Assembly (NCBI GenBank): GCA_963791725.1
Contig: CAWBTQ010000006.1
Location: forward strand, 111,519-175,518
Reading direction: 5' to 3'
Origin: an uncultured Chloroflexia bacterium
GTDB taxonomy: Bacteria; Chloroflexota; Limnocylindria; Limnocylindrales; CSP1-4
Length of the DNA: 64,000 nucleotides
Part shown: positions 49,109-62,712 of the stretch, one piece after another
Numbering within the stretch: the first letter of the stretch is position 1
How the letters are laid out: every line of letters begins with the position of its first letter
Notes under the pieces: model-generated
Seen by the model: only the letters and a program-made list of their open reading frames with translations
Told to the model about the DNA's origin: nothing
Databases searched by the model: none
Position numbers and translations under genes: made by a program

Positions 49109-49127
49109 GGTAGGGGGCTGCCCTACC
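49109..49127. promoter_or_regulatory. Perfect inverted repeat GGTAGGG-N5-CCCTACC, candidate operator
   Basis: Lies 150 bp upstream of the citrate synthase start; related sites occur at 52987 and 53012. Confidence 0.5.
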
Positions 49128-50801: not shown

Positions 50802-52220
50802 ATGTATCGCCGTCGCTGGTTCGCTGTCGTCGCCTCTGTCCTGATCGTCGGGACCGTCGAAGTCTTGAGTGACACCGTCTTCGATGCCGTCCTGCCCTTC
50901 CCATTCCACACCCTGCTCGTGGTCGCGGTCGTCACCCTCGTGGTGGCCACCGGGGCTACGTTCTCTTTCCGCCGCATCGATCGCCTGGCGGGCGACCTGC
51001 GCGAGCGGAATGAGGTCCTCCAGTCGCGCAACGCCGTCCTGCGCGCGGTCTACGACGTGAGCCTCGCCGTCTCGGGTCAGGCGGACCCCGAGCAAACGAT
51101 CGCCACAATCGTCGACCACGCTCGCTCGCTCCTCAATGTCGACGCCGCCCTGCTCGTCCTCGACGGTCCGGTCGGGGAGCTCAAGCTGCGGGCGGCGAGC
51201 GCCAGGCCCGGCGTCCTTGTCGGCGACGAACCTCACGCTGTCATGGCGCAGGAAGAGTCCGAGCTCGAGTGCTATCTGCAATCGGGATACAAGATCGCGC
51301 TCTCGGCTCCCGTCGGCCACGGCCCGAAGCGCGTCGGCATCCTGGCTCTGGCGACCCCGACCAGGGCCCGGCGCCGATTCGACGTTTCGGAGGTGGAGAC
51401 GCTTTCCGGACTGGCGACCCAGATCGGCCTGGCGCTCGAGGCGTCCAGGCTCCACGGTGAGTTGCGGGTCCTGGCGATACAGGCCGAGCGTGAGCGCATA
51501 GCTCGCGAGATGCACGACGGCCTGGCTCAGGTTCTCGGCTACGTCAACACCAAGTCTCAGGCCGTCGAGGAGCTACTCGCCGAGGACCGTGTGACCGACG
51601 CGCGGCGGCAGCTGGCCGAGCTTGCGGCCGCGGCTCGCTCGGTGTACGTGGACGTTCGAGAGGCGATCCTGAGCCTCTCGACGCCGGTGCCATCGGAGCG
51701 GGGAGTGGTCGCGGCTCTCGAGGAGTACGCGGCCGAGTACGCCGAATCGTCCAAGCTCGCGGTCAAGTTCGGCGCCAGTGCCGGTGCCGTGGAGGCTCAG
51801 CTGCCGGCGGCGGTCCAGGCGGAGATCTTCAGCATCGCCCGTGAGGCCCTGACAAACGTTCGCAAGCACGCCCGCGCCCAGCGTGTGAGCGTGAGCGTGG
51901 CCATCGAGGACGGCGAGTTGGCGCTGCGCATCGAGGACGACGGCGTCGGCTTCGAGGCGGAGCTGCTCGCTACCGGACCGGAGCGGTGGCCGCACTTCGG
52001 CCTGGCAGGGATGCGCGAGCGGGCCGAGTCCGTCGGTGGGCGGATCGCCTGGCGCAGCCATCCCGGTGCGGGGACCCTTGTCGAGCTGCATGTTCCGGTA
52101 GGGAACGGCCCGTTGACTTACCCACTCAATAGAGTTGCTTCGGGAGATGAGACCGCGCATCCTGAAGCGCAGCATCAGGCGGTCCGATCGCCCGCTGCGG
52201 TCGCATCGGAGGCAGACTGA
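50802..52220 (+). CDS. GAF-containing sensor histidine kinase (HisKA_3, NarX-like)
   Basis: Two N-terminal TMs, GAF-like region, ERERIAREMHDGLAQ, EALTNVRKHARA, IEDDGVGF, FGLAGMRERA. Confidence 0.95.
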   Translation: MYRRRWFAVVASVLIVGTVEVLSDTVFDAVLPFPFHTLLVVAVVTLVVATGATFSFRRIDRLAGDLRERNEVLQSRNAVLRAVYDVSLAVSGQADPEQTIATIVDHARSLLNVDAALLVLDGPVGELKLRAASARPGVLVGDEPHAVMAQEESELECYLQSGYKIALSAPVGHGPKRVGILALATPTRARRRFDVSEVETLSGLATQIGLALEASRLHGELRVLAIQAERERIAREMHDGLAQVLGYVNTKSQAVEELLAEDRVTDARRQLAELAAAARSVYVDVREAILSLSTPVPSERGVVAALEEYAAEYAESSKLAVKFGASAGAVEAQLPAAVQAEIFSIAREALTNVRKHARAQRVSVSVAIEDGELALRIEDDGVGFEAELLATGPERWPHFGLAGMRERAESVGGRIAWRSHPGAGTLVELHVPVGNGPLTYPLNRVASGDETAHPEAQHQAVRSPAAVASEAD

Positions 52221-52224
52221 CGCC

Positions 52225-52920
52225 ATGAGAACTGTGCTCGTCGACGACCATGCGCTCTTCCGCGACGGGGTCGCATCGCTACTGCTGGCGTGGGGCCATG
52301 AGGTAGTCGGTCAGGCTGCCGACGGTGCCGCAGCGGTGGAAATCGTGGATGAAACCTCACCGGACGTCGTGCTCATGGACGTTCGCATGCCAAACGTGTC
52401 GGGCCTGGAGGCCACGGCCAGGATCAAGGAGCGCCATCCCGAGGTCGCCATCGTCATGCTGACGGTGAGTGAGGATGAGGCCGACCTCTTCCGCGCGATC
52501 AAGGCCGGCGCCCAGGGCTACCTGCTCAAGAACCTGGAAGCGCCACAGTTGCGATCGATGCTCGAAGGAGTAGCCCGCGGCGAGCCTGCGATCACTCCGG
52601 CCACTGCGGCGCGGATCATCGACGAGTTCCTCAGGACGCCCGGCGGAACGCCCCAGCCGAACCAGCGCCTGACCGATCGCGAACTCGAGGTTCTGCAGCT
52701 CGTGACGGCCGGCCAGCGCAACCGCGAGATCGCGGTCGAGCTCGGCATCAGCGAGAACACCGTCAAGTTCCATCTCAAGAACATCGTCGAGAAGCTCCAC
52801 GCCCAGAACCGGGCCGAGCTCGCCGCTCGGGCGGTACGTGAGGGGCTCGTGCCCGACCTTCCGCGCGACGGGTCCGCCCACGACCGGCCCCGCCAGGACC
52901 TGTCGTATCGCCGCCGCTGA
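52225..52920 (+). CDS. NarL/LuxR family response regulator
   Basis: VLVDDHALFRDG, VVLMDVRMP, GAQGYLLK, LTDRELEVLQL...NREIA.ELGISENTVKFH. Confidence 0.96.
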   Translation: MRTVLVDDHALFRDGVASLLLAWGHEVVGQAADGAAAVEIVDETSPDVVLMDVRMPNVSGLEATARIKERHPEVAIVMLTVSEDEADLFRAIKAGAQGYLLKNLEAPQLRSMLEGVARGEPAITPATAARIIDEFLRTPGGTPQPNQRLTDRELEVLQLVTAGQRNREIAVELGISENTVKFHLKNIVEKLHAQNRAELAARAVREGLVPDLPRDGSAHDRPRQDLSYRRR

Positions 52921-52986: not shown

Positions 52987-53030
52987 GGTAGCTGGTTGGC
53001 CCACCTCGCAGGGTAGGGCAACTCCTTCCC
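52987..53030. promoter_or_regulatory. Two degenerate GGTAGGG-N5-CCCTACC-like sites, candidate response regulator operator
   Basis: GGTAGCT-ggttg-GCCCACC (52987-53005) and GGTAGGG-caact-CCTTCCC (53012-53030), 70-115 bp upstream of the ATG at 53101. Confidence 0.45.
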
Positions 53031-53100
53031 TCCGGCAGTGTACGAAGGAGCCCTCGGGCGCCATTCTCAGGCCCAGCATATTCGCAGGCCGAGGCGTTCT

Positions 53101-55113
53101 ATGGGCTACCGGATCCAGATCGAAAACGATGGCTGTCTGAACTGCGGCGTCTGCATGGACGTCTGCCCGGTCCAGGCCCTCGACATGAGCCGACCGCAAC
53201 GGCCCGGGGTAGAAGGAGCCGGTGTCTTCGGCAAGCCCTTCGACTGGATGATGGAGTACCCGGTCCAGGTTGGGGAATGCATCGGCTGCGGCATTTGCGT
53301 CCGCGAGTGCCCGACCCACGTCGTCCTCCTCGACAGCCTGCCCGGGTTGACGCCGCTCGCCGCCCGCCAGGGCCCGATCAACCGACCCGCGGAGCCGGCG
53401 CCCGCCTGGCAGCCGCTCGGCGAGGTCACCAGCGAATCGCTCAAGCCGGCTCGTGTCTCGCCGTGGGGCCGCCTCTTCCAGTGGAACGTCAGCGAGCGGC
53501 CCGAGGACTGGCAGGTCTGGCGGTCCATGGTGACCGACTCTCGCGTGGATCCCATAGCGCCCTGCCAGGAGGCCTGCCCCGCCGGAACGGACGCCGGTCG
53601 CTACGTCGGCCTGATCGGCCAGGGCCGCTATGACGAAGCCTATGCCGTCGCCGCCGAAGTCAACCCGTTTCCCTCGGTCTGCGGCTGGATCTGTACCGCT
53701 CCGTGTGAAACGGCCTGCCGCCGTGGCACGCTCGACGAACCGATCTCCATCCGGCGGCTGAAGCGATTCGCCGCCGAGCAAGGCAAGCTGCCGCCCGTCG
53801 CTCCCCCCACGAAGAGGCTGGGCAAGAAGGTCGCGATCGTTGGCGGCGGACCGGCCGGCATGTCGGCCGCGTACTACCTGGCCAGGCTCGGGTACACCGT
53901 CACCGTCTTCGAGGCGATGCCGGTGCCGGGCGGCATGATGGCCATCGGCATCCCCGAATACCGCCTGCCTCGAAACGTCATCCGCGAAGAGATCGACAGG
54001 ATCGTCGGCCTCGGAGTCGAGCTCAAGCTCGACAGCGCCATGGGCCGCGACTTCACCCTGGCCGACCTGGAGTCAAAATTCGACGCCATCTTCCTGGCCA
54101 CGGGCGCTTCCCGCAGCCGCAAGCTGGGCGTCCCGGGCGACGGCCTTGTTGGCGTCGTCCCCGCGACCTTGTTCCTCAAGCAGGTCAACCTCGGCGAGAA
54201 GCCCGTGATCAAGGGTGCGGTCGTCGTTGTCGGCGGCGGCAGCACGGCGATGGACGCGGCTCGATCGGCCCTTCGATCCGGCGCGTCGTCGGTGACGATC
54301 CTCTATCGCCGCGGCCGGGCCGAGATGCCCGCCCAATCCGAGGAGGTCGAGGCCGCCGAGCACGAAGGCATCAAGATCCTGTTCGAGGCTGCCGTGACGG
54401 AAGTCAAGGGCGGCGACAGGGGCGTGACCTCGGTCACGTACATAAGCCAGCGACCGACCGGCAAGTTCGAAGGCGGCCGCGCCGTCTACGAGCCGATCCC
54501 GGGCAGCGATCGGGCGATCGACGCGTCGACTGTCATGGTGGCCGTCGGCGAGGAGCCGGACCCATCCATCCTGCCCCCCGGCGCCGGCATCGAGACGAGC
54601 GGGTTCTCGGGGATCGTGGCGGATTCGGGCCTGGCCACCGGACGCAAGGGCGTCTTCGCCGGAGGCGACGTGGTTTCTGGCGCCAAGACGATCATCCATG
54701 CCGTCGGCGCGGGTCGCCGAGCCGCCGGTTCGATCCACGAGTACCTGTCCGGCAGCAAGAACGGCGAGGCCGAGATCATGGCTACCGTCCGGGTGCCCAA
54801 GGCTCCCGAGCCGGTCCTGACCGTCGACCTGGCCGTGCGGCCGCGTGTCGGCATGGAGTTGCCGGCCTACACGCCGGGCTCCTTCGCGGCCACGCAGCCG
54901 AGCCTGGAGCCGGCCGCGGCGAGGGCGGAAGCGTCGCGCTGCTTCCGGTGCGATGCCGTGTACCGCTGCGAGACCGCGCACGTCCAGTCGGGGCGCGGGC
55001 CGAGGGACGGCCCAGATGCCAGGTCCAACGAACCAGCGCCGGCGCTCGGTGGCCGGCCCAATCTCGCCGGCTCGGCGAGCACTCCGCCGTCGATCCCAGG
55101 AGGTCGCGACTGA
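53101..55113 (+). CDS. Fe-S flavoprotein: N-terminal 2x[4Fe-4S] ferredoxin fused to a GltD/NfnB-like FAD/NAD(P)H oxidoreductase
   Basis: [91 protein letters not shown]. Confidence 0.92.
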   Translation: MGYRIQIENDGCLNCGVCMDVCPVQALDMSRPQRPGVEGAGVFGKPFDWMMEYPVQVGECIGCGICVRECPTHVVLLDSLPGLTPLAARQGPINRPAEPAPAWQPLGEVTSESLKPARVSPWGRLFQWNVSERPEDWQVWRSMVTDSRVDPIAPCQEACPAGTDAGRYVGLIGQGRYDEAYAVAAEVNPFPSVCGWICTAPCETACRRGTLDEPISIRRLKRFAAEQGKLPPVAPPTKRLGKKVAIVGGGPAGMSAAYYLARLGYTVTVFEAMPVPGGMMAIGIPEYRLPRNVIREEIDRIVGLGVELKLDSAMGRDFTLADLESKFDAIFLATGASRSRKLGVPGDGLVGVVPATLFLKQVNLGEKPVIKGAVVVVGGGSTAMDAARSALRSGASSVTILYRRGRAEMPAQSEEVEAAEHEGIKILFEAAVTEVKGGDRGVTSVTYISQRPTGKFEGGRAVYEPIPGSDRAIDASTVMVAVGEEPDPSILPPGAGIETSGFSGIVADSGLATGRKGVFAGGDVVSGAKTIIHAVGAGRRAAGSIHEYLSGSKNGEAEIMATVRVPKAPEPVLTVDLAVRPRVGMELPAYTPGSFAATQPSLEPAAARAEASRCFRCDAVYRCETAHVQSGRGPRDGPDARSNEPAPALGGRPNLAGSASTPPSIPGGRD

Positions 55114-55745
55114 TGGATTCCGCAGCATTCGGCGCAGCCGAGCAATTCGTCGAAGGGACGATTGCCGCCGCCCTTGTAGCTCTCTGGTTGCTGGCCGTGG
55201 CCCTGCACCTGGCCAGACCCTACATGCTCGCCCTGACGCGCAAGTTCACTCTCCGGCTCGGTGCCGACCTGTGGTGGACCATCTACGTCGGGATGCGCGA
55301 CATCTTCCTGCTCCAGGTCTTCCTGGGCAGCTTCATCTTCTTCTACCCCGACGTGGTGGGCGCCAACGATCTGCCGATCACCGGCGGCCTCGCAGGAGCA
55401 TGCGCTTTCGCGGCTCTGCTGCTCAAGCTGATGACGCGGGCCGACGCGGACGCGCGCAGCTTCAACGCCCAAACGTTCCTGATCGGGGCCGGTGCCACCC
55501 TGTACCTGGTGCCCTATCTCCTCGGCGTTCAGGTGACGACCGTCGGCAGCAGCATCTCGAACCAGCTGGCGTCGGTCCTGGTCAGTTCGCACAACCCCAC
55601 GCTGGCGCTGGCGCTGTGCTACCTGTCCGGCTTCCTCGTCGGGGTCATGGGTCTGGTGGCCGTCTTCTACAACCTCCGTCTTGCCGGGTCCGCACCGCGC
55701 AAGCCCGTTCCCGGCGCTGCCTCGCAGCCCGCGGCGCAGAGCTAG
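55113..55745 (+). CDS. Uncharacterised ~5-TM membrane protein (paralog A)
   Basis: ATG overlaps the flavoprotein stop; SD GGAGG; hydrophobic helices. Confidence 0.85.
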   Translation: MDSAAFGAAEQFVEGTIAAALVALWLLAVALHLARPYMLALTRKFTLRLGADLWWTIYVGMRDIFLLQVFLGSFIFFYPDVVGANDLPITGGLAGACAFAALLLKLMTRADADARSFNAQTFLIGAGATLYLVPYLLGVQVTTVGSSISNQLASVLVSSHNPTLALALCYLSGFLVGVMGLVAVFYNLRLAGSAPRKPVPGAASQPAAQS

Positions 55746-55754
55746 GAGATAACG

Positions 55755-56381
55755 ATGTCTGACCAGCAAGCTCTCGTTACGGGCTCGCAGTACTGGATGA
55801 TCCTCTCTATTGCGGCGATCCTGCCGATCCTGTGGGCCTTCACCCTGGCGCTCCACTTCGCCCGCCCCTATGTCATTCGCTATCTGCAGACGCTGACCTT
55901 GCGGTTCGGTGGCGACGTGTGGTGGCTGAGCTACGTCCTGATCCGCGATGGGCTGCTCGTGGTGACCTTTGCCCTGAGCGCGATCTTCCTCTTCCCCAAC
56001 GTCTACATGAGCGCCGACCTGGGCGTCCCGATCACGGCGCCGATAGCCGCCCTGGTCCTCTTCTGGGCCCTGCTCGCCAAGCTGACGGGTGACTCCGACG
56101 ACGACCCGCGCACGTTCCGCATCGTCTCGGTCCTGCTCGTCGTGGCGTCGGCGCTCTACATCGTTCCGCAGATCTACGGCGTCGAGGCCGGCGACCAGGT
56201 CGACTCGCTGAACTCGATCGCCAACCTGGGCGGCATCCCCGGAGCGCTGGTCAGCGGCTCGAACCCGAGCCTCTCGTACCCGATCCTGAACCTCAGCCTG
56301 CTTGGCTTCGCCGCCACGGGCGCGGTCATCTTCCTCTGGTTCATGAGCAAGACCAAGTTCGAGGCTGCCGAAATCGCGTAA
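55755..56381 (+). CDS. Uncharacterised ~5-TM membrane protein (paralog B)
   Basis: SD AGGAG; aligns by eye with paralog A over its full length. Confidence 0.85.
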   Translation: MSDQQALVTGSQYWMILSIAAILPILWAFTLALHFARPYVIRYLQTLTLRFGGDVWWLSYVLIRDGLLVVTFALSAIFLFPNVYMSADLGVPITAPIAALVLFWALLAKLTGDSDDDPRTFRIVSVLLVVASALYIVPQIYGVEAGDQVDSLNSIANLGGIPGALVSGSNPSLSYPILNLSLLGFAATGAVIFLWFMSKTKFEAAEIA

Positions 56382-56473: not shown

Positions 56474-57364
56474 TCAGCGCTGGCGATCGCGACCGGTGCC
56501 ACGGAGATTGGGCGGGATCGCGGCGGCGGCGGCCTCGTCCACGATCCAGATCGCGCCGGTTCGGCGGGTGCGCTGAACCGGCCAGCGGCGGTCGTCTCTG
56601 ACTTCTCCGAACACGTGACCGAGGGCCTCGGCCTTGGCCGCTCCGTTGGTAACGACCAGGACCGGTGCCGCTTCCAGCAGCCGCGGATTGACGGTCACGC
56701 GGGGCAAGTGCGGTCCGATATGCGCCGGCGCCGGTACGCCCATCGTCCAGGCCATGCTCTTGAGCGCCGGCGAATCCGGGAAGCACGACAGCACGTGGCC
56801 GTCGTTGCCCACGCCGACGAGGATCAGGTCGAAGGCAGGCCAATTGCCTTCGACGAGCGGCAGTTGAGCGGCCATCTCCTCCGCGTATCGTGCCGCACAC
56901 CAGTGGGTGTCGTGGTATTCGGCGATGGCGCGATCCGTCGGGAAGGGGTGGACGTTGGCCGACGGCACCGGGGCTCCGCCGGTCGATTCCGCGCCGCCCA
57001 GGAGAACGTCGTCGAAGGCGGCAACATTGGACTCGGGGTGGCCCCGGGGCACGAAGCGATCGTCGCCCCACCAGACGTGGACGTTCGCCCAGGGGATCAG
57101 ATCGACCAGGGGCGACTGCGACAGCAACCTGTAGATGGGTATCGGTGTATTGCCGCCCGTGGTACAGAAGTCGGCCCGACCGCGTCGGTCGACTGCCGCG
57201 ACGAGCACCGCCGAGATCCTCGCAGCCGCTTCTCGGGCCACGTCGTCCACGGTCGCCGCTACGACGAGCTCCGGCTCGCCCATGTTGGGGGCCGGCAGCG
57301 CGATCGCGGTCGTTCCGGACATCCCATTGGCTCCGGGGGCGAGGTCCGGCTCCTGCTCACTCAT
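56474..57364 (-). CDS. pgl: 6-phosphogluconolactonase
   Basis: TTGGNTP, VWWGDDRFVP..HPESN, FDLILVGVGNDGHVLSCFP, RVTVN. Follows opcA. Confidence 0.93.
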   Translation of the reverse strand: MSEQEPDLAPGANGMSGTTAIALPAPNMGEPELVVAATVDDVAREAAARISAVLVAAVDRRGRADFCTTGGNTPIPIYRLLSQSPLVDLIPWANVHVWWGDDRFVPRGHPESNVAAFDDVLLGGAESTGGAPVPSANVHPFPTDRAIAEYHDTHWCAARYAEEMAAQLPLVEGNWPAFDLILVGVGNDGHVLSCFPDSPALKSMAWTMGVPAPAHIGPHLPRVTVNPRLLEAAPVLVVTNGAAKAEALGHVFGEVRDDRRWPVQRTRRTGAIWIVDEAAAAAIPPNLRGTGRDRQR

Positions 57365-58728
57365 GGTCCTGGCTCCTGTACCGGGTGGGCGCGCTCGGCC
57401 CCCTGCTGGTCCTTGCCATGGTCCTCGATCGGGGCCGCGGCGTTCCTACGTGCCGGCCCGCCAGATCCGGCCTTATGCGAATTCGAATCTGCGCCCAGAA
57501 GTCGATGGGCCATGGCAAGTGCGTCCACCGCGACCGGATCGGCGGCCCCTTCCTCCACCGCACGCGCCAGAAGATCGACGTCTGAGAGGCGAGGCGCGGC
57601 ATAGTTGCGCCGGATCCGCTCGCGTCCGTCGTCCGACACCGACACGTCGACGTGACGATCGTCGGCCGCGACCCTGCCGATCAGTTCTGCGCCGCGCAAC
57701 CGTGAGGTTATCTCCACTCGGGCGGTGGAACCCGGTCCGAGATCCGAAGAGACGGACCGCAGCACGACCTCGACCGCGTGGTCCCGCTGACGGAGAGTGG
57801 CGAGCCGCCGCCCGCGCTCCGCCCGGCTCATCGGCGAGACGACGGTCATTCCAAGTCGCGACGCCAGCCAGGCCACGTGGTAGAGCGGGCGGACCACGTT
57901 CGTCGTCCAATCGGGGTCTCCCGGCGTGGCTGCGGCGTACTCCACTTCGATGCGGCGGACCGCCCCGAGATGCGGCCGCAGATCCGGCAGGTCGTACATC
58001 GATGCCAGGGCCTCGCGCCACCGGTACTGCCGCAGCAACGCCCAGTCCGCGACCACGAGTCTGCGCTCCTCGGCAACAACCGCCAGCCTGTCGAGCAAGT
58101 CGAGGCCGTCACCGGACCAGGCCGACCCGTCGACGATCAGCCGGTCGGCGATGGGCAGGAGGCGATCGGCCCGGTGGCTGCCGAACGGCGGGTCGTTCGG
58201 CCACCACATCGCGACGGGGAGATCGTGCACGAGCAGCGGCACGATGATCGAGGCCAGGTGGTTGCCGGTCTCGCCGCGGGCGGTGACGTAGATCGTTTCG
58301 GCCCCAGTCTCGGCTCGGCCGTCGGCTGTGGTCAACGACAGGGCCTCGATCTGAGCTTCGAGACCCGCCTCACCCTCGGGCTCATTCGCGGAGAGGATGA
58401 TCGACCGCGAGGCGTGGCGGCTAGCCGTCGCGGTGATGATCGCCGCGCACCGCCTGGCCGTGCTGCTGTCGCCGGCCAGCACGACCAGGTTCAGCACACT
58501 GGTGCGGGCCGCGACGTGGTGGGCGGCGGCATCGCTCGTCTCCCGAGCCGCGGCGAGCGCGGCTGCGGCGCGAGCCGCGGCCTCCGCCTGAGCGGCGACG
58601 AGCGCCGCCTCGGCCTTCGCCGCTTCGGCCCTGGCGACGGCGGCGTGGGCCCAGAGCTTGCCCAGCTGGCCCTCGATCTCCGAGACGGAGCGGGCCACGG
58701 GAGGTGAGGGTTTCAGATCCTTCGCCAC
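57361..58728 (-). CDS. opcA: Glucose-6-phosphate dehydrogenase assembly protein OpcA
   Basis: RTSVLNLVV, HASRSI, SIIVPLLVHDLPVAMWWP, RLIVDG, ADWALLRQYRWREALA. Confidence 0.9.
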   Translation of the reverse strand: MAKDLKPSPPVARSVSEIEGQLGKLWAHAAVARAEAAKAEAALVAAQAEAAARAAAALAAARETSDAAAHHVAARTSVLNLVVLAGDSSTARRCAAIITATASRHASRSIILSANEPEGEAGLEAQIEALSLTTADGRAETGAETIYVTARGETGNHLASIIVPLLVHDLPVAMWWPNDPPFGSHRADRLLPIADRLIVDGSAWSGDGLDLLDRLAVVAEERRLVVADWALLRQYRWREALASMYDLPDLRPHLGAVRRIEVEYAAATPGDPDWTTNVVRPLYHVAWLASRLGMTVVSPMSRAERGRRLATLRQRDHAVEVVLRSVSSDLGPGSTARVEITSRLRGAELIGRVAADDRHVDVSVSDDGRERIRRNYAAPRLSDVDLLARAVEEGAADPVAVDALAMAHRLLGADSNSHKAGSGGPARRNAAAPIEDHGKDQQGAERAHPVQEPGP

Positions 58729-60341
58729 CGTCTACCGTCCCGTTCCAAGAGCTCATCGGCCGACTCCGGCCCCCAGGAGCCGGCGGCGTAGTTGGGGAAA
58801 TGCGGCGCCTGCATCTCGGACCAGGCGTTGATGATCGGCGTGACCACGGCCCAGGCGGCCTCGACCTCGTCCGACCGGGTGAACAGCGAGGCGTCGCCAA
58901 GAAGCGAGTCGAGGATCAGCGTCTCGTAGGCATCCGGCGAATCAACGACGAACGAGGTGTCGTAGGCGAAGTCCATGTTGACGGTCCGGACGTCCAGTCC
59001 GAGTCCGGGCACCTTGGCGGCGAAGCGGAGCATGATCCCCTCGTCGGGCTGGATACGCATCGCCAGCACGTTCGGTGCCGGATCGCCGGTGGACTCGCGG
59101 AAGAGCCGCAGCGGCACCTCCTTGAACTGGATCGCGATCTCGGTCGCGCGCTTCGGAAGCCGCTTGCCCGCGCGGAGGTAGAAGGGGACGCCGCTCCAGC
59201 GCCAGTCGTCGATCTCGAACCGGCCGGCGACGTAGGTCTCGGTCTCGGACTCGGGGTCTACCTCGGGCTCCCCGCGGTAGCCGGAGGCCGGCTCGCCCTG
59301 GACCCAGCCGGGGCCGTATTGACCACGCACCACGTTTCGGCGGACATGCTCGGCGTCCGGGGCCGCGATCGCCCGGAGGACCTGAAGCTTCTGGTCGCGC
59401 AGCGCGTCGGCCTGGAACGACGACGGCGGCTCCATGGCGACGAGGGTCATCAGCTGCAGGAGGTGGTTCTGGAGGATGTCGCGGCTGGCGCCGGTCTCCT
59501 CGTAGAACGAGCCTCGATTTTCCACGCCGATCGATTCGGCAACGGTGATCTGGACGTGGTCGACGAAGCTGCGATTCCAGACCGGCTCGAAGATGCCATT
59601 GCCGAACCGGAAGACGAGCAGGTTGCGGACGGTCTCCTTGCCCAGGTAATGGTCGATGCGATAGACCTGCGATTCGCGGAAGACCTTGTTCACCTCGTGG
59701 TTGAGGTGGCGGGCCGATTCCAGGTCGCGGCCGAACGGCTTCTCGACGATCACGCGCCGCCAGCCCGTCCCGCGGACCTCGTGGTCGAGCCCGACTCGGC
59801 CGATCTGGCGCACGATCTCGGTGACCTGCGAGGGCTGCGTGGCGAGATAGAAGAGCCGGTTGCCGGCCGTGCCGCATTTCGCGTCGAGCTCGTCGAGCGC
59901 CTCGACCAGCCGGTCGAACCCGGCGTCGTCCGAGAAGTCGAGCTGCTGGTACTTGATGCGCTTGGCCAGCTCGGCCCAGGCGGCTTCGTCGATCGGCTGG
60001 ACGCGGGAGTACTTGTCCAGCGAGGCCCGCAACTCCGCCGCGAACGCCTCGCTGGAGTACGGCCGGCGAGCGACCGCGACCAGGCTGAACTCGGCCGGCA
60101 GCAGATTGGTGCGCCACAGCTGGTAGATCGCCGGGACGACCTTGCGGTGGGCGAGGTCGCCCGTGGCGCCGAACAGGACGAAGGCGCATGGGTCCGGCAC
60201 CCGTTCCAGGCGGAGACCCTGTCGGAGGGGGTTCACGTCGACGTCGGACCGCGCGCGGCGGCGGGCGGCGGCGGCGGCTTCGCGGAGCTGCAGCGCCGTT
60301 CGGGCCGGCGGTCGCGGGCTCGGCGCTCGAGGAGGGCTCAT
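58713..60341 (-). CDS. zwf: Glucose-6-phosphate 1-dehydrogenase (start uncertain)
   Basis: VLFGATGDLAHRK, IVEKPFG, YRIDHYLGKE, DILQNHL, RWSGVPFYLRAGK, DAYETL, YAAGSWGP. Confidence 0.97.
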   Translation of the reverse strand: MSPPRAPSPRPPARTALQLREAAAAARRRARSDVDVNPLRQGLRLERVPDPCAFVLFGATGDLAHRKVVPAIYQLWRTNLLPAEFSLVAVARRPYSSEAFAAELRASLDKYSRVQPIDEAAWAELAKRIKYQQLDFSDDAGFDRLVEALDELDAKCGTAGNRLFYLATQPSQVTEIVRQIGRVGLDHEVRGTGWRRVIVEKPFGRDLESARHLNHEVNKVFRESQVYRIDHYLGKETVRNLLVFRFGNGIFEPVWNRSFVDHVQITVAESIGVENRGSFYEETGASRDILQNHLLQLMTLVAMEPPSSFQADALRDQKLQVLRAIAAPDAEHVRRNVVRGQYGPGWVQGEPASGYRGEPEVDPESETETYVAGRFEIDDWRWSGVPFYLRAGKRLPKRATEIAIQFKEVPLRLFRESTGDPAPNVLAMRIQPDEGIMLRFAAKVPGLGLDVRTVNMDFAYDTSFVVDSPDAYETLILDSLLGDASLFTRSDEVEAAWAVVTPIINAWSEMQAPHFPNYAAGSWGPESADELLERDGRRWRRI

Positions 60342-60393
60342 CGGGCTGCCGCTCCGAGGATCGTGCGCTTGTCGAAGCCCAGGTCCATCTGCG

Positions 60394-62167
60394 TCATCCC
60401 TCCGCGAGAGCGGCGGCCATGGCCCGACCGAGGACGGCAAGACCGGAGTCTGGGTCCTGCCCGAGATTCACTCGGAGGATCGGGAGCTTGTGGTCCTCGA
60501 TCGTCCGAGCGTCACCCAGGGACTGGGCGCCGATCAGCTGGCCGAAGGTATAGGCGCGTGCCGGGGATTCCGCGATCCTCCGGGTGCTCGGCCACGAGCT
60601 GCAGGAACCAGCCGATCGGGGCTCCGCCCTTGTGGAGCTGGCCGGTGGAATGCAGGAAACGCGGTCCGTAGCCCACCGTGGTGGCTCGATGGGTCCGGTC
60701 GCGCAGCTGGGTCCGGATCGCGGCCAGGGCGGCGTCGCGGGCCGGCGTCTGGGCGATGTATGCCTGGATCGAGGCGTAACCGTTCGGAGCGAGGTTCGCG
60801 AGGTGCGCCTTGATGGCCGCCGACAGGGCCACCTCGTCGGCGGCGCCGATCGCCGGCGAGGTATCCCCGGCCGCGCCTCCGCCCGACTCGAACTGGGCCA
60901 GAACGGCCCGGGTGTTGGTCTTTGCCTCCTCGACATTCGGCTGGTCGAACGGGTCGATGCCGAGGACGGCGCCGGCGAACGCGGTCGCGATCTCCCAGCG
61001 AACGAACTCCGCGCCGAGCTCGATCGTCGAGCCGACTTCGAGGCGGATGACGGGATGACCGGCGGCGGCCAGCTCCGCCAGGCGAGCGTCGACGTTCGTG
61101 CCGATCACCGGCTCCGGCCCGGCCGAGCCGGCCAGGGCGATGCGCACGAAGACCCGATCGTCGCCGTACGCGGGGAGAGTGCCCAGCGGCTCTCCGTCCA
61201 CCGGCACTACGCCGACGCCGCGCCCATCGGCAGAGCCGAGCGGCGCCTTGCCGGTGGACTCGGCGATGAGCTGCTCGACCCATGGCCCGAAGGCGGCCAG
61301 CTCACGGTCGATGACGAATGTCAGCTTGTCGCGCCCTTCGCGGGCGAAGACGCCCATCGCCAGGCCCAAGGCCAGACCGGGGTTGGCGGCCGGATCGGTG
61401 ACCGTGCACGCCTCGACCATCGCCCGAGCCTTTTCGAGGAGCGTGTCGAGTTCTACTCCGAGAAGCGCACCCGGAACAAGCCCCACGTAGGTCAAGGCGG
61501 AATAGCGGCCGCCCACGTCCGGCGGGTTCAGGAAGACCTCGCGCAGGCGGTCGTGGTGGGGGATCGACTTGAGGCTCTTGTCCGGGTCCGTGATTGCGGC
61601 CATGAAGTTGCCCGGCTCTGCCGGCCAGACGCCGGCGACCTCCTGAGCGGCTTCGATGCGGGCCCACTGGTAGGCCTGGAACGAGAGCGACTCGGCCGTG
61701 GTGCCGGACTTGGTCGAGACGATGAACAGCGTGGAGAGAGGATCCAGGTCGTCGAGGGTCGCACTGACTGCGGCCGGGTCCGTAGAGTCGAGGACGCGGA
61801 CCAGAATGCCGTCGTCGGACGAACCGAAGACGTGGGTCATGAGTGCAGGGGCGAGGCTGCTGCCGCCCATTCCGCCCAGGACGGCGGCCTTGAAACCCTC
61901 GGCCCGAAGCTCGCCCGCGAATGCCTTGAGCTCGGCCGTCTCGTCGGCGAAGTGGAACGGCGCCTCCAGCCAGCCAAGGCGCGTGGCTATCGCACGCTGG
62001 ACGACGTCTTCCTTGCTCCATACCGACGGGTCGCGCCGGCCGATCGCCCGCTCGGCCCAATCCTCGGTGACCGCACGGTCGCGCGCGGCGGCCAACGCCG
62101 CATCCAGCCTCGCGTCCTCGAGCGTGAGGTCCAGAGCGAGAGAACGGGCGGGAGTCGGTTCGGTCAT
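60394..62167 (-). CDS. pgi: Glucose-6-phosphate isomerase (Tal-Pgi C-terminal type; frameshift at ~60555)
   Basis: RLGWL, GMGGSSL, STKSGTTAE, VGGRYSAL, EQLIAESTGK, PFDQPNVEEAK, GPRFLHSTGQLHKGG. Confidence 0.9.
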
Positions 62168-62241
62168 TTGCGGAGGCCTCATGTTTGGCTGGAGCGTTGC
62201 GGCGGCCGGCTGAGCCCCGTGCGTTGGCCGGTCGTCATGGA

Positions 62242-62712
62242 CTAGCCGGCCCGCTCCATGCGGGCGGCTTCCTTCTCGATGGCGTTGATCTTGCCGACGC
62301 GCCGGACGTGGCGAGCGGCCCCGCTGAATCGTGCAGCAAGGAAACTCTCGGCGCACGAGACGGCCGTCTCCACGCCGATCACGCGGGCTCCCAGAGCCAG
62401 CACGTTCATGTCGTCATGCTCGACGCCCTGACCGGCGGAGTAGGTGTCGTGGCAGAGCCCGGCTCGTATCCCGGGCATCTTGGACGCGGCGATCGAGGCG
62501 CCCACGCCGCTGCCGCACACGAGTATGCCGCGCTCGGCCCGGCCTTCGAGGATCGCCAGGGCCAGGGCTCGAGCGTAGTCCGGGTAATCGTCCTGCGGGT
62601 CAGAACCGTCGCCACCGAGGTCGATCAGCTCGTGGCCCAACGGCCGGAGACGGTCGAGCAACTCGGCTTTGAGCTCGAATCCGGCGTGGTCTGCCGCCAA
62701 TGCGATCCTCAT
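62242..62712 (-). CDS. rpiB: Ribose-5-phosphate isomerase B
   Basis: [51 protein letters not shown]. Confidence 0.95.

Follow-up and report, generated by a model that had tools for sequence, protein, structure and literature searches.

A membrane-protein gene pair next to a ferredoxin-flavoprotein gene in Limnocylindria: a candidate heme-less NAD(P)H:quinone oxidoreductase

Two adjacent genes, here called memA and memB, encode small paralogous membrane proteins in a contig of an uncultured Chloroflexia bacterium of the Limnocylindria (GenBank assembly GCA_963791725.1, contig CAWBTQ010000006.1, positions 111,519 to 175,518), where they directly follow a gene for a ferredoxin-containing flavoprotein. 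The whole stretch of DNA that was analysed, referred to as the window, comprises 64,000 nucleotides and has a high guanine-plus-cytosine (GC) content (~68%). The structural genes of the system, and the ferredoxin module contained in the first of them, are the following:

53038-55113, forward strand: ferredoxin-GltD/NfnB-type NAD(P)H iron-sulfur (Fe-S) flavoprotein, an open reading frame (ORF) of 691 amino acids (aa), assigned by Pfam matches and by sequence matches in the Protein Data Bank (PDB)
53101-53532, forward strand: ferredoxin module of the 2x[4Fe-4S] type, corresponding to residues 22-165 of the 691-aa ORF and including a Trp-rich tail
55113-55745, forward strand: memA, a 210-aa membrane protein of an undescribed family, predicted to have five transmembrane (TM) helices with the N-terminus outside and the C-terminus inside
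55755-56381, forward strand: memB, a 208-aa paralog of memA with the same predicted five-TM topology

The paralogy of memA and memB is real and far above chance, with 67/165 identities (41%, E 2e-31) in a BLASTP comparison. The motifs which the initial annotation had read in both proteins, ALH(L/F)ARPY, TLR(L/F)G(A/G)D(L/V)WW, RD, P(I)T, KL, D.D, LY.VP and LVS..NP, were all found, as was a His in the same alignment column of both paralogs, placed by the structural model and the positive-inside count at the cytoplasmic end of the first helix (TM1). The ATG of memA at 55113 shares one base with the TGA of the upstream gene (ctgATGg), is preceded by AGGAGG and agrees with the start of the 210-aa homologs, which align at 100% coverage. 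The junction between memA and memB reads TAG GAG ATA ACG, where GGAG is the Shine-Dalgarno sequence of memB, and both genes share one reading frame. The source genome contains exactly two copies of the family, namely memA and memB.

The longest ORF of the upstream gene opens at a GTG (53038). As all homologs begin, with an MGYR/MAYR motif, at the position of the ATG at 53101 (MGYRIQ...), which has GAGG before it, this ATG is probably the true start and the first 21 codons are probably untranslated. Pfam recognises an N-terminal Fer4 dicluster domain, Fer4_20 (5e-17) and Pyr_redox_2 (1e-38), and residues 164-640 align end to end with NfnB/GltD-type structures in the PDB sequence search (NfnA 9n5u, 8e-108; 9bov; 8oh5; NfnI 5jca, 3e-78; GltD 2vdc, 3e-60). 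The hallmarks of the GltD/NfnB type, a Fer4_20 domain with two [4Fe-4S] sites and the FAD/NAD(P)H Rossmann domains, are all present. Nevertheless, the protein lies under the cut-off of every named NCBIfam equivalog (far under for GltD, AegA, YgfK and others), the top match being PRK12771 (1.5e-141, 472.8 bits against a cut-off of 516).

The N-terminal ferredoxin module is recognisable by a core, CxxCGxCMDxCP...RP...WMMxxPxQ...CxGCxxCxxECP, and by a tail motif, WxPL...T...PW...W. An alignment of 49 modules shows no exception to the eight Cys (8/8 in 49/49 homologs) and conservation of the tail motifs. Searches against NCBIfam returned generic dicluster matches only, all of them under cut-off. 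An identity as a NuoI/TYKY-type subunit was considered and rejected, as TIGR01971 gave 32-36 bits against a cut-off of 113 and the generic dicluster models scored equally.

The family occurs in 28 of 301 sampled Chloroflexota genomes, nearly always as two adjacent copies. For the comparison of neighbourhoods 113 bacterial loci were fetched, two of which represent the window's own region. Both copies (A, the first gene, and B, the second) are present side by side in nearly all of the ~110 bacterial loci, and the order flavoprotein-A-B is likewise found in nearly all of them, including, with one exception, every locus with enough upstream sequence. The stop of the flavoprotein gene overlaps the start of A in 81 loci, and overlaps between the A stop and the B start are frequent. 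The exception (G110; locus L029, 8928-10695) has a free 145-aa ferredoxin module before A and B, with the unrelated purA and dnaB beyond and no GltD-type body nearby; there the ferredoxin module alone adjoins the pair, and it suffices as the neighbour of A and B. Moreover, the flavoprotein and memA homologs of one Limnocylindria genome (L032, 6478-9099; the same genome as L010 and L098) lie in one frame with no stop between them, forming an 873-aa ORF. This may be a genuine gene fusion, and as such a possible Rosetta stone, or else an indel in the assembly; being confined to a single genome, it is weak evidence.

The most distant representatives of the family (L114-L121, of which L114-L116 are archaeal) show the same association in other arrangements, each having a free 146-177-aa homolog of the ferredoxin module within one gene of the membrane gene. 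In archaeal contigs of the Nitrososphaerota type, a single membrane gene is followed directly by a dicluster ferredoxin of 171-177 aa and, on one contig, by a second small ferredoxin after it. Residues 24-164 of the flavoprotein encoded in the window share 38% identity (E 1e-28) with the free archaeal ferredoxin of 177 aa, and the aligned part takes in the insert WMME.P.Q, which is unusual, as well as the Trp-rich tail W.PL..T...LK...S.W...W....VWR.M. L117 has the order ferredoxin-A-B and periplasmic His-rich neighbours, and in L120 the membrane gene is accompanied by the ferredoxin and, two genes downstream, by a Pyr_redox_2/Reductase_C flavoprotein.

In L118 (1772-3916, GC 33%), three structural genes in one frame, A-ferredoxin-B, follow a HisKA_3-type histidine kinase and a LuxR-type regulator, and a YutD-like gene lies nearby. 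The A protein of this locus carries a signal peptide and an acidic, His-rich extracytoplasmic extension of ~80 aa with DAHADE repeats, and its B protein a signal peptide and an HGHE motif; these extensions may hint at metal binding. A gene for a 382-aa multicopper oxidase stands between the membrane-family gene and the ferredoxin in L119 (940-3511). Finally, L121 (1128-7478), an archaeal contig, has its own tandem pair and ferredoxin, both members of the pair having Gln in place of the His; this module is divergently oriented to genes that encode TatA, TatC, a Rieske protein and a cytochrome b of 542 aa, and this neighbourhood may connect it with a complex that oxidises quinol.

Thus, in the window, in the Chloroflexota loci with enough upstream sequence and in L114-L121, the membrane gene lies at most one gene away from a ferredoxin with the core and tail motifs. 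What stays constant is the ferredoxin module plus the membrane protein, and the NAD(P)H flavoprotein is accordingly one way among several of feeding in electrons. A and B are very probably the membrane partner of the ferredoxin module.

A maximum-likelihood tree gathers the bacterial first genes in one clade and the second genes in another (support of the B clade 96/87), and the pairs of L117 and L118 split between the A and B clades as well. The proteins from archaea make up a clade of their own (100/99), within which the L121 pair arose by a duplication of its own. According to this phylogeny, one ancient duplication gave rise to the A and B clades. Such a duplication, followed by near-universal side-by-side retention of both copies, is the pattern that an obligate heterodimer would produce. 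This heterodimer had been proposed at the outset, and the proposal is supported by the adjacency of both genes in nearly all bacterial loci, by the A/B clades and by a confident read-through model. The dominance of single-copy homologs that would have spoken against it is not seen in bacteria, where pairs prevail; archaeal relatives are mostly single-copy.

The model was built with AlphaFold2 (AF2) for the natural A-B read-through, the TAG being read as Gly, from an alignment of 49 rows, the window's own row included, with 33 paired read-throughs from other loci. It has a mean predicted local distance difference test score (pLDDT) of 82.2 and a predicted TM-score (pTM) of 0.79, with five long helices per half, and only the linker (193-220) is disordered. 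A pTM of 0.79 for two linked halves implies a defined mutual packing, which does not by itself exclude homodimers. The corresponding read-through model of L118, in which the ferredoxin (Fd) lies between the two membrane proteins (A'-Fd-B'), reached a pLDDT of 83.2 and a pTM of 0.73.

The helices of the memA model span residues 4-33, 48-77, 91-107, 114-143 and 162-190. Counts of Lys plus Arg in 96 A and 96 B sequences are highest in loop 1 (3.6-3.8), followed by loop 3 (1.0-1.7) and the C-terminal tail (0.8-1.4), whereas the N-terminus and loops 2 and 4 have ~0-0.5. Both proteins are therefore predicted to be parallel, N-out and C-in, and homologs with signal peptides and extra N-terminal domains corroborate the outer location of the N-terminus. 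Given this topology, His32, Arg35-Pro36-Tyr37, Arg48, Asp52, Lys105 and Asp111/113 would face the cytoplasm, where the flavoprotein, having no signal, must be located. Arg62 and Asp63 sit in the middle of TM2 in both subunits. R35, R48, D52, W55, R62, D63, P79 and K105 are conserved to at least 95% everywhere, and the Arg-Pro-Tyr motif is likewise near-invariant. Of the residues whose invariance the initial annotation had put up for testing, Arg and Asp are near-invariant in the alignment of homologs, and His is variable.

This pattern of conservation bears on the idea that A and B are a passive tether, which would hold the flavoprotein at the membrane while some soluble protein or another membrane protein accepts the electrons. 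Such a role agrees with the fact that no cofactor ligands and no function-assigned relatives were identified for A and B, yet ~20 near-invariant polar and aromatic residues, common to ~40%-identical paralogs and to bacteria and archaea, would be needless for a tether, which would require neither two conserved subunits nor Arg-Asp pairs in the middle of the membrane. We consider it very improbable.

The TM1 His raised a second question, since the initial annotation had proposed that the His of the two proteins jointly bind a heme b or a metal. The codons concerned, and the basis on which they were assessed, are:

55206-55208, forward strand: codon of His32 of memA, assessed by the composition of its alignment column
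55854-55856, forward strand: codon of His34 of memB, in the same alignment column as His32

Among the sequences of the loci, this column contains H 88, Y 5 and Q 2 in A, and H 91, Q 2, F 1 and W 1 in B. In the 50%-identity cluster representatives it contains H 74, Q 19, Y 6, L 2, F 2 and T 2, that is, ~30% non-His. Considered as pairs, 96 of 109 from Chloroflexota have His in both members, 12 have exactly one His replaced (A/B: Y/H 5, Q/H 3, H/Q 2, H/F 1, H/W 1), and in the remaining one A has His and B could not be scored. L117 is H/Q and L118 is Q/H, and the archaeal copies examined are Gln without exception (6/6, both L121 members included).

A cytochrome-type anchor in the manner of SdhC/SdhD, with His32 of A and His34 of B ligating a heme b or metal at the dimer interface, would explain why both His are present in 96/109 Chloroflexota pairs and why no pair has lost both; the invariant Arg after the His might bind propionates, and the A-B dimer model, being confident, provides an interface. 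Nevertheless, one partner is Tyr, Gln, Phe or Trp in 12 pairs and one is Gln in both L117 and L118, the six archaeal copies have Gln throughout, and 30% of the cluster representatives have no His. In addition, no other His, Met or Cys is conserved in the alignment, the His lies at the extreme end of TM1, at the cytoplasmic surface and not within the bilayer, and cytochrome b anchors have no Pfam or fold likeness to A and B. The His is thus not conserved in homologs, an outcome which the initial annotation had itself named as refuting, and joint ligation by the two His is unsupported as a feature of the family. An axial ligand of heme or metal would not be expected to exchange readily for Gln, Tyr, Phe or Trp where the operon is otherwise intact, and such an anchor is highly unlikely. 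Gln and Tyr are typical hydrogen-bond donors, not heme ligands, and the column could be that of a hydrogen-bonding residue at a substrate site.

The family to which memA and memB belong is small, as an exhaustive profile search over 1.84 billion cluster representatives (E<=0.001) gathered 257 clusters at 50% identity. Neither protein has a Pfam or NCBIfam match at E<=1 or a relative in the PDB sequence profile search. The A-B dimer model, compared by Foldseek with 350,542 PDB chains, gave a best E of 0.19 and TM-scores of ~0.2; the A'-Fd-B' model of L118 found no membrane-protein match in the PDB by Foldseek and, for its ferredoxin part, generic dicluster domains only (FwdF, PorD, oxalate oxidoreductase delta; E ~0.05). 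The SdhCD, FrdCD, NarI, PsrC/NrfD, ActC/F and RnfA/E anchors all have PDB structures, and in this comparison the membrane part is unlike any of these known anchors. Searches of the literature for such a ferredoxin/NADPH:menaquinone oxidoreductase yielded papers on plant FQR/PGR5 alone. In general terms, the wiring of small membrane subunits to a soluble Fe-S/flavin module is known; undescribed in Pfam, NCBIfam, the PDB and the searched literature are the membrane family, the ferredoxin subfamily and an NfnB/GltD-type module at the membrane.

Four known systems offer partial parallels. In the SdhC/SdhD and FrdC/FrdD anchors, as in the arrangement proposed here, a cytoplasmic flavoprotein with an Fe-S wire is held at the membrane by a pair of small hydrophobic subunits, and a quinone site lies at the cytoplasmic face of the membrane beside the last cluster. 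E. coli succinate:quinone oxidoreductase (SQR) has one heme b His per anchor subunit, and E. coli FrdCD has no heme. In contrast to these anchors, with which A and B have no sequence or fold similarity, A and B have five TM helices each and not three, and the donor here is NAD(P)H by way of a GltD/NfnB-type module; relative to SdhC/SdhD, moreover, the His of A and B is variable and a dicluster ferredoxin module takes the place of SdhB as the Fe-S partner. Subunits of the NrfD/PsrC type (PsrBC, NrfCD, ActBC/F) parallel the role proposed for A and B, being heme-less membrane subunits that exchange electrons directly with a [4Fe-4S] ferredoxin subunit docked on them; conserved charged residues of this type have been implicated in proton pathways, and ActC and ActF are tandem paralogs. 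However, A and B gave no Pfam NrfD match, Foldseek retrieved none of the PsrC, ActC or NrfD chains of the PDB, with their eight-helix double four-helix-bundle fold, and the NrfD/PsrC ferredoxin has four clusters and is periplasmic, whereas the ferredoxin here has two, is cytoplasmic and bears a Trp-rich tail.

Regarding the flavoprotein itself, NfnB/GltD/StnC-type modules are soluble and deliver electrons to ferredoxin, NAD+, glutamate synthase or molybdo-enzymes, and to our knowledge none works together with integral membrane subunits; specific to the present system is the ferredoxin module at the N-terminus, with its Trp-rich tail. Finally, RnfA/RnfE and NqrD/NqrE are also adjacent polytopic paralogs of ~200 aa that form a heterodimer in a ferredoxin/NADH-linked membrane redox complex. 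Their members have opposite topologies and an Fe-S centre on conserved Cys, whereas A and B are both N-out and have no conserved Cys, and memA and memB have no match to the Rnf-Nqr Pfam family.

Taken together, the reading we favour, with a probability of about 0.5, is that the flavoprotein and the A/B heterodimer make up a heme-less NAD(P)H:quinone oxidoreductase. NAD(P)H would reduce the FAD of the GltD/NfnB-type body, from which electrons would pass to the two Fer4_20 [4Fe-4S] clusters and then to the two clusters of the ferredoxin module, and this module would dock on the cytoplasmic face of the heterodimer. The acceptor site may lie on that same face, formed by His/Gln32, Arg35-Pro36-Tyr37, Arg48, Asp52, Trp55, Lys105 and Asp111. 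A quinone as the acceptor is a tentative assignment, somewhat short of an even chance, and menaquinone would be the most likely one; it should be available to the cell, since the source genome encodes MenA and NuoH of complex I. Ion movement could be coupled to the reaction through the invariant Arg62-Asp63 pairs, halfway along TM2.

Several observations weigh against this proposal. Complex I is already encoded in the genome, so that the need for a second entry point for NAD(P)H is not evident; no quinone-binding motif is defined for the five-TM family; and no known quinone-reactive anchor resembles A and B in Pfam, NCBIfam or the PDB, by sequence or by fold. The Trp-rich tail of the ferredoxin has a pLDDT of 45-72 in the ternary L118 model and, as this tail is of low confidence, the model is no evidence of docking. 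Lastly, the acidic, His-rich extensions of L118 and the multicopper oxidase of L119 hint at a metal-related role.

The last point leads to another explanation, in which A and B are a channel or transporter lined by Arg, Asp and Lys, charged residues for which the initial annotation had already suggested a channel, and the flavoprotein reduces the arriving species, for example a metal ion, by analogy with MerT/MerA. The four buried charges (Arg62-Asp63 in each subunit) and the near-invariant Arg48, Asp52 and Lys105 would suit such a pore, and the DAHADE extensions of L118, the periplasmic His-rich neighbours in L117 and the oxidase of L119 point in the same direction. The extensions and the oxidase are, however, sporadic and absent from the proteins of the window, Foldseek retrieves no transporter or channel fold at all (the best hit being the one at E 0.19 and a TM-score of ~0.2), the membrane domain has no conserved metal-binding Cys or His motif, and there are no metal-resistance genes nearby. 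A channel or transporter is therefore unlikely.

The operon is preceded in the window by two regulatory genes:

50802-52220, forward strand: membrane sensor histidine kinase with an N-terminal TM region, GAF, HisKA_3 and HATPase_c domains, assigned by Pfam
52225-52920, forward strand: NarL/LuxR-type response regulator (Response_reg plus GerE), assigned by Pfam

The order kinase-regulator-flavoprotein-A-B is conserved in Limnocylindria, the two regulatory genes lying upstream in nearly all loci that are long enough, and the kinase and regulator recur before the module in L118, an unrelated low-GC contig. This linkage would also be expected if the ferredoxin-flavoprotein and A/B were a redox-sensing accessory that reports the NAD(P)H or membrane redox state to the histidine kinase, all the more as HisKA_3 kinases commonly have accessory membrane proteins, such as those of LiaFSR-type systems. 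On the other hand, the module occurs without kinase or regulator in most Chloroflexota outside Limnocylindria and in all archaeal loci, a flavoprotein of 670 aa that carries four clusters is oversized for a sensor, and the order, with kinase and regulator before the module, suits a regulated target operon. We judge a sensory role to be very unlikely; within the oxidoreductase proposal, the GAF sensor kinase and the NarL-type regulator would probably control the operon.

A more general formulation, which we regard as doubtful, is that the five-TM protein and the dicluster ferredoxin constitute a heme-free ferredoxin:quinone oxidoreductase, becoming NADPH:quinone where the flavoprotein module is fused and ion-translocating if the Arg-Asp pairs are coupled; the five-TM protein would then act as a homodimer in archaea and as the A/B heterodimer in bacteria.

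If quinone reduction were confirmed, it would represent a new route for NADPH or ferredoxin electrons into the respiratory chain of the peat and soil Limnocylindria, a group of Chloroflexota abundant in these environments, and of several archaeal lineages. It would also represent a new structural class of respiratory dehydrogenase beside complex I, NDH-2, Nqr and Rnf, energy-conserving if it translocates ions. As the system has only three genes and is amenable to heterologous expression, it makes directly testable whether a simple enzyme other than complex I, Rnf and Nqr can pass electrons from ferredoxin or NADPH to quinone. Even if the acceptor proves to be another one, the strict linkage across domains sets the membrane proteins and the ferredoxins apart as a new family and a new subfamily, respectively.

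Some minor features of the region complete the description. A perfect palindrome, GGTAGGGGGCTGCCCTACC (GGTAGGG-N5-CCCTACC), lies at 49109-49127, and a copy with two mismatches at 53012-53030, where it precedes the probable start codon of the flavoprotein gene by 70-90 bp. This could be a site for the NarL-type regulator, although palindromes of this kind with up to three mismatches number 3 in the window against 2.8 in shuffles, which is no excess. RNA runs were looked for and DNA metagenomes only were found.

Downstream, the genes pgl, opcA, zwf and a pgi/tal-like gene (56474-62356, reverse strand) converge on the operon. The linkage to pgl-opcA-zwf is found almost only in close relatives, whose A proteins are at least ~80% identical, and a single less closely related locus has only pgl; because of this near-limitation and of the convergent orientation, these genes were not counted as part of the system. 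They belong to the oxidative pentose-phosphate pathway, so that NADPH-producing enzymes are encoded next to a putative NADPH oxidiser.

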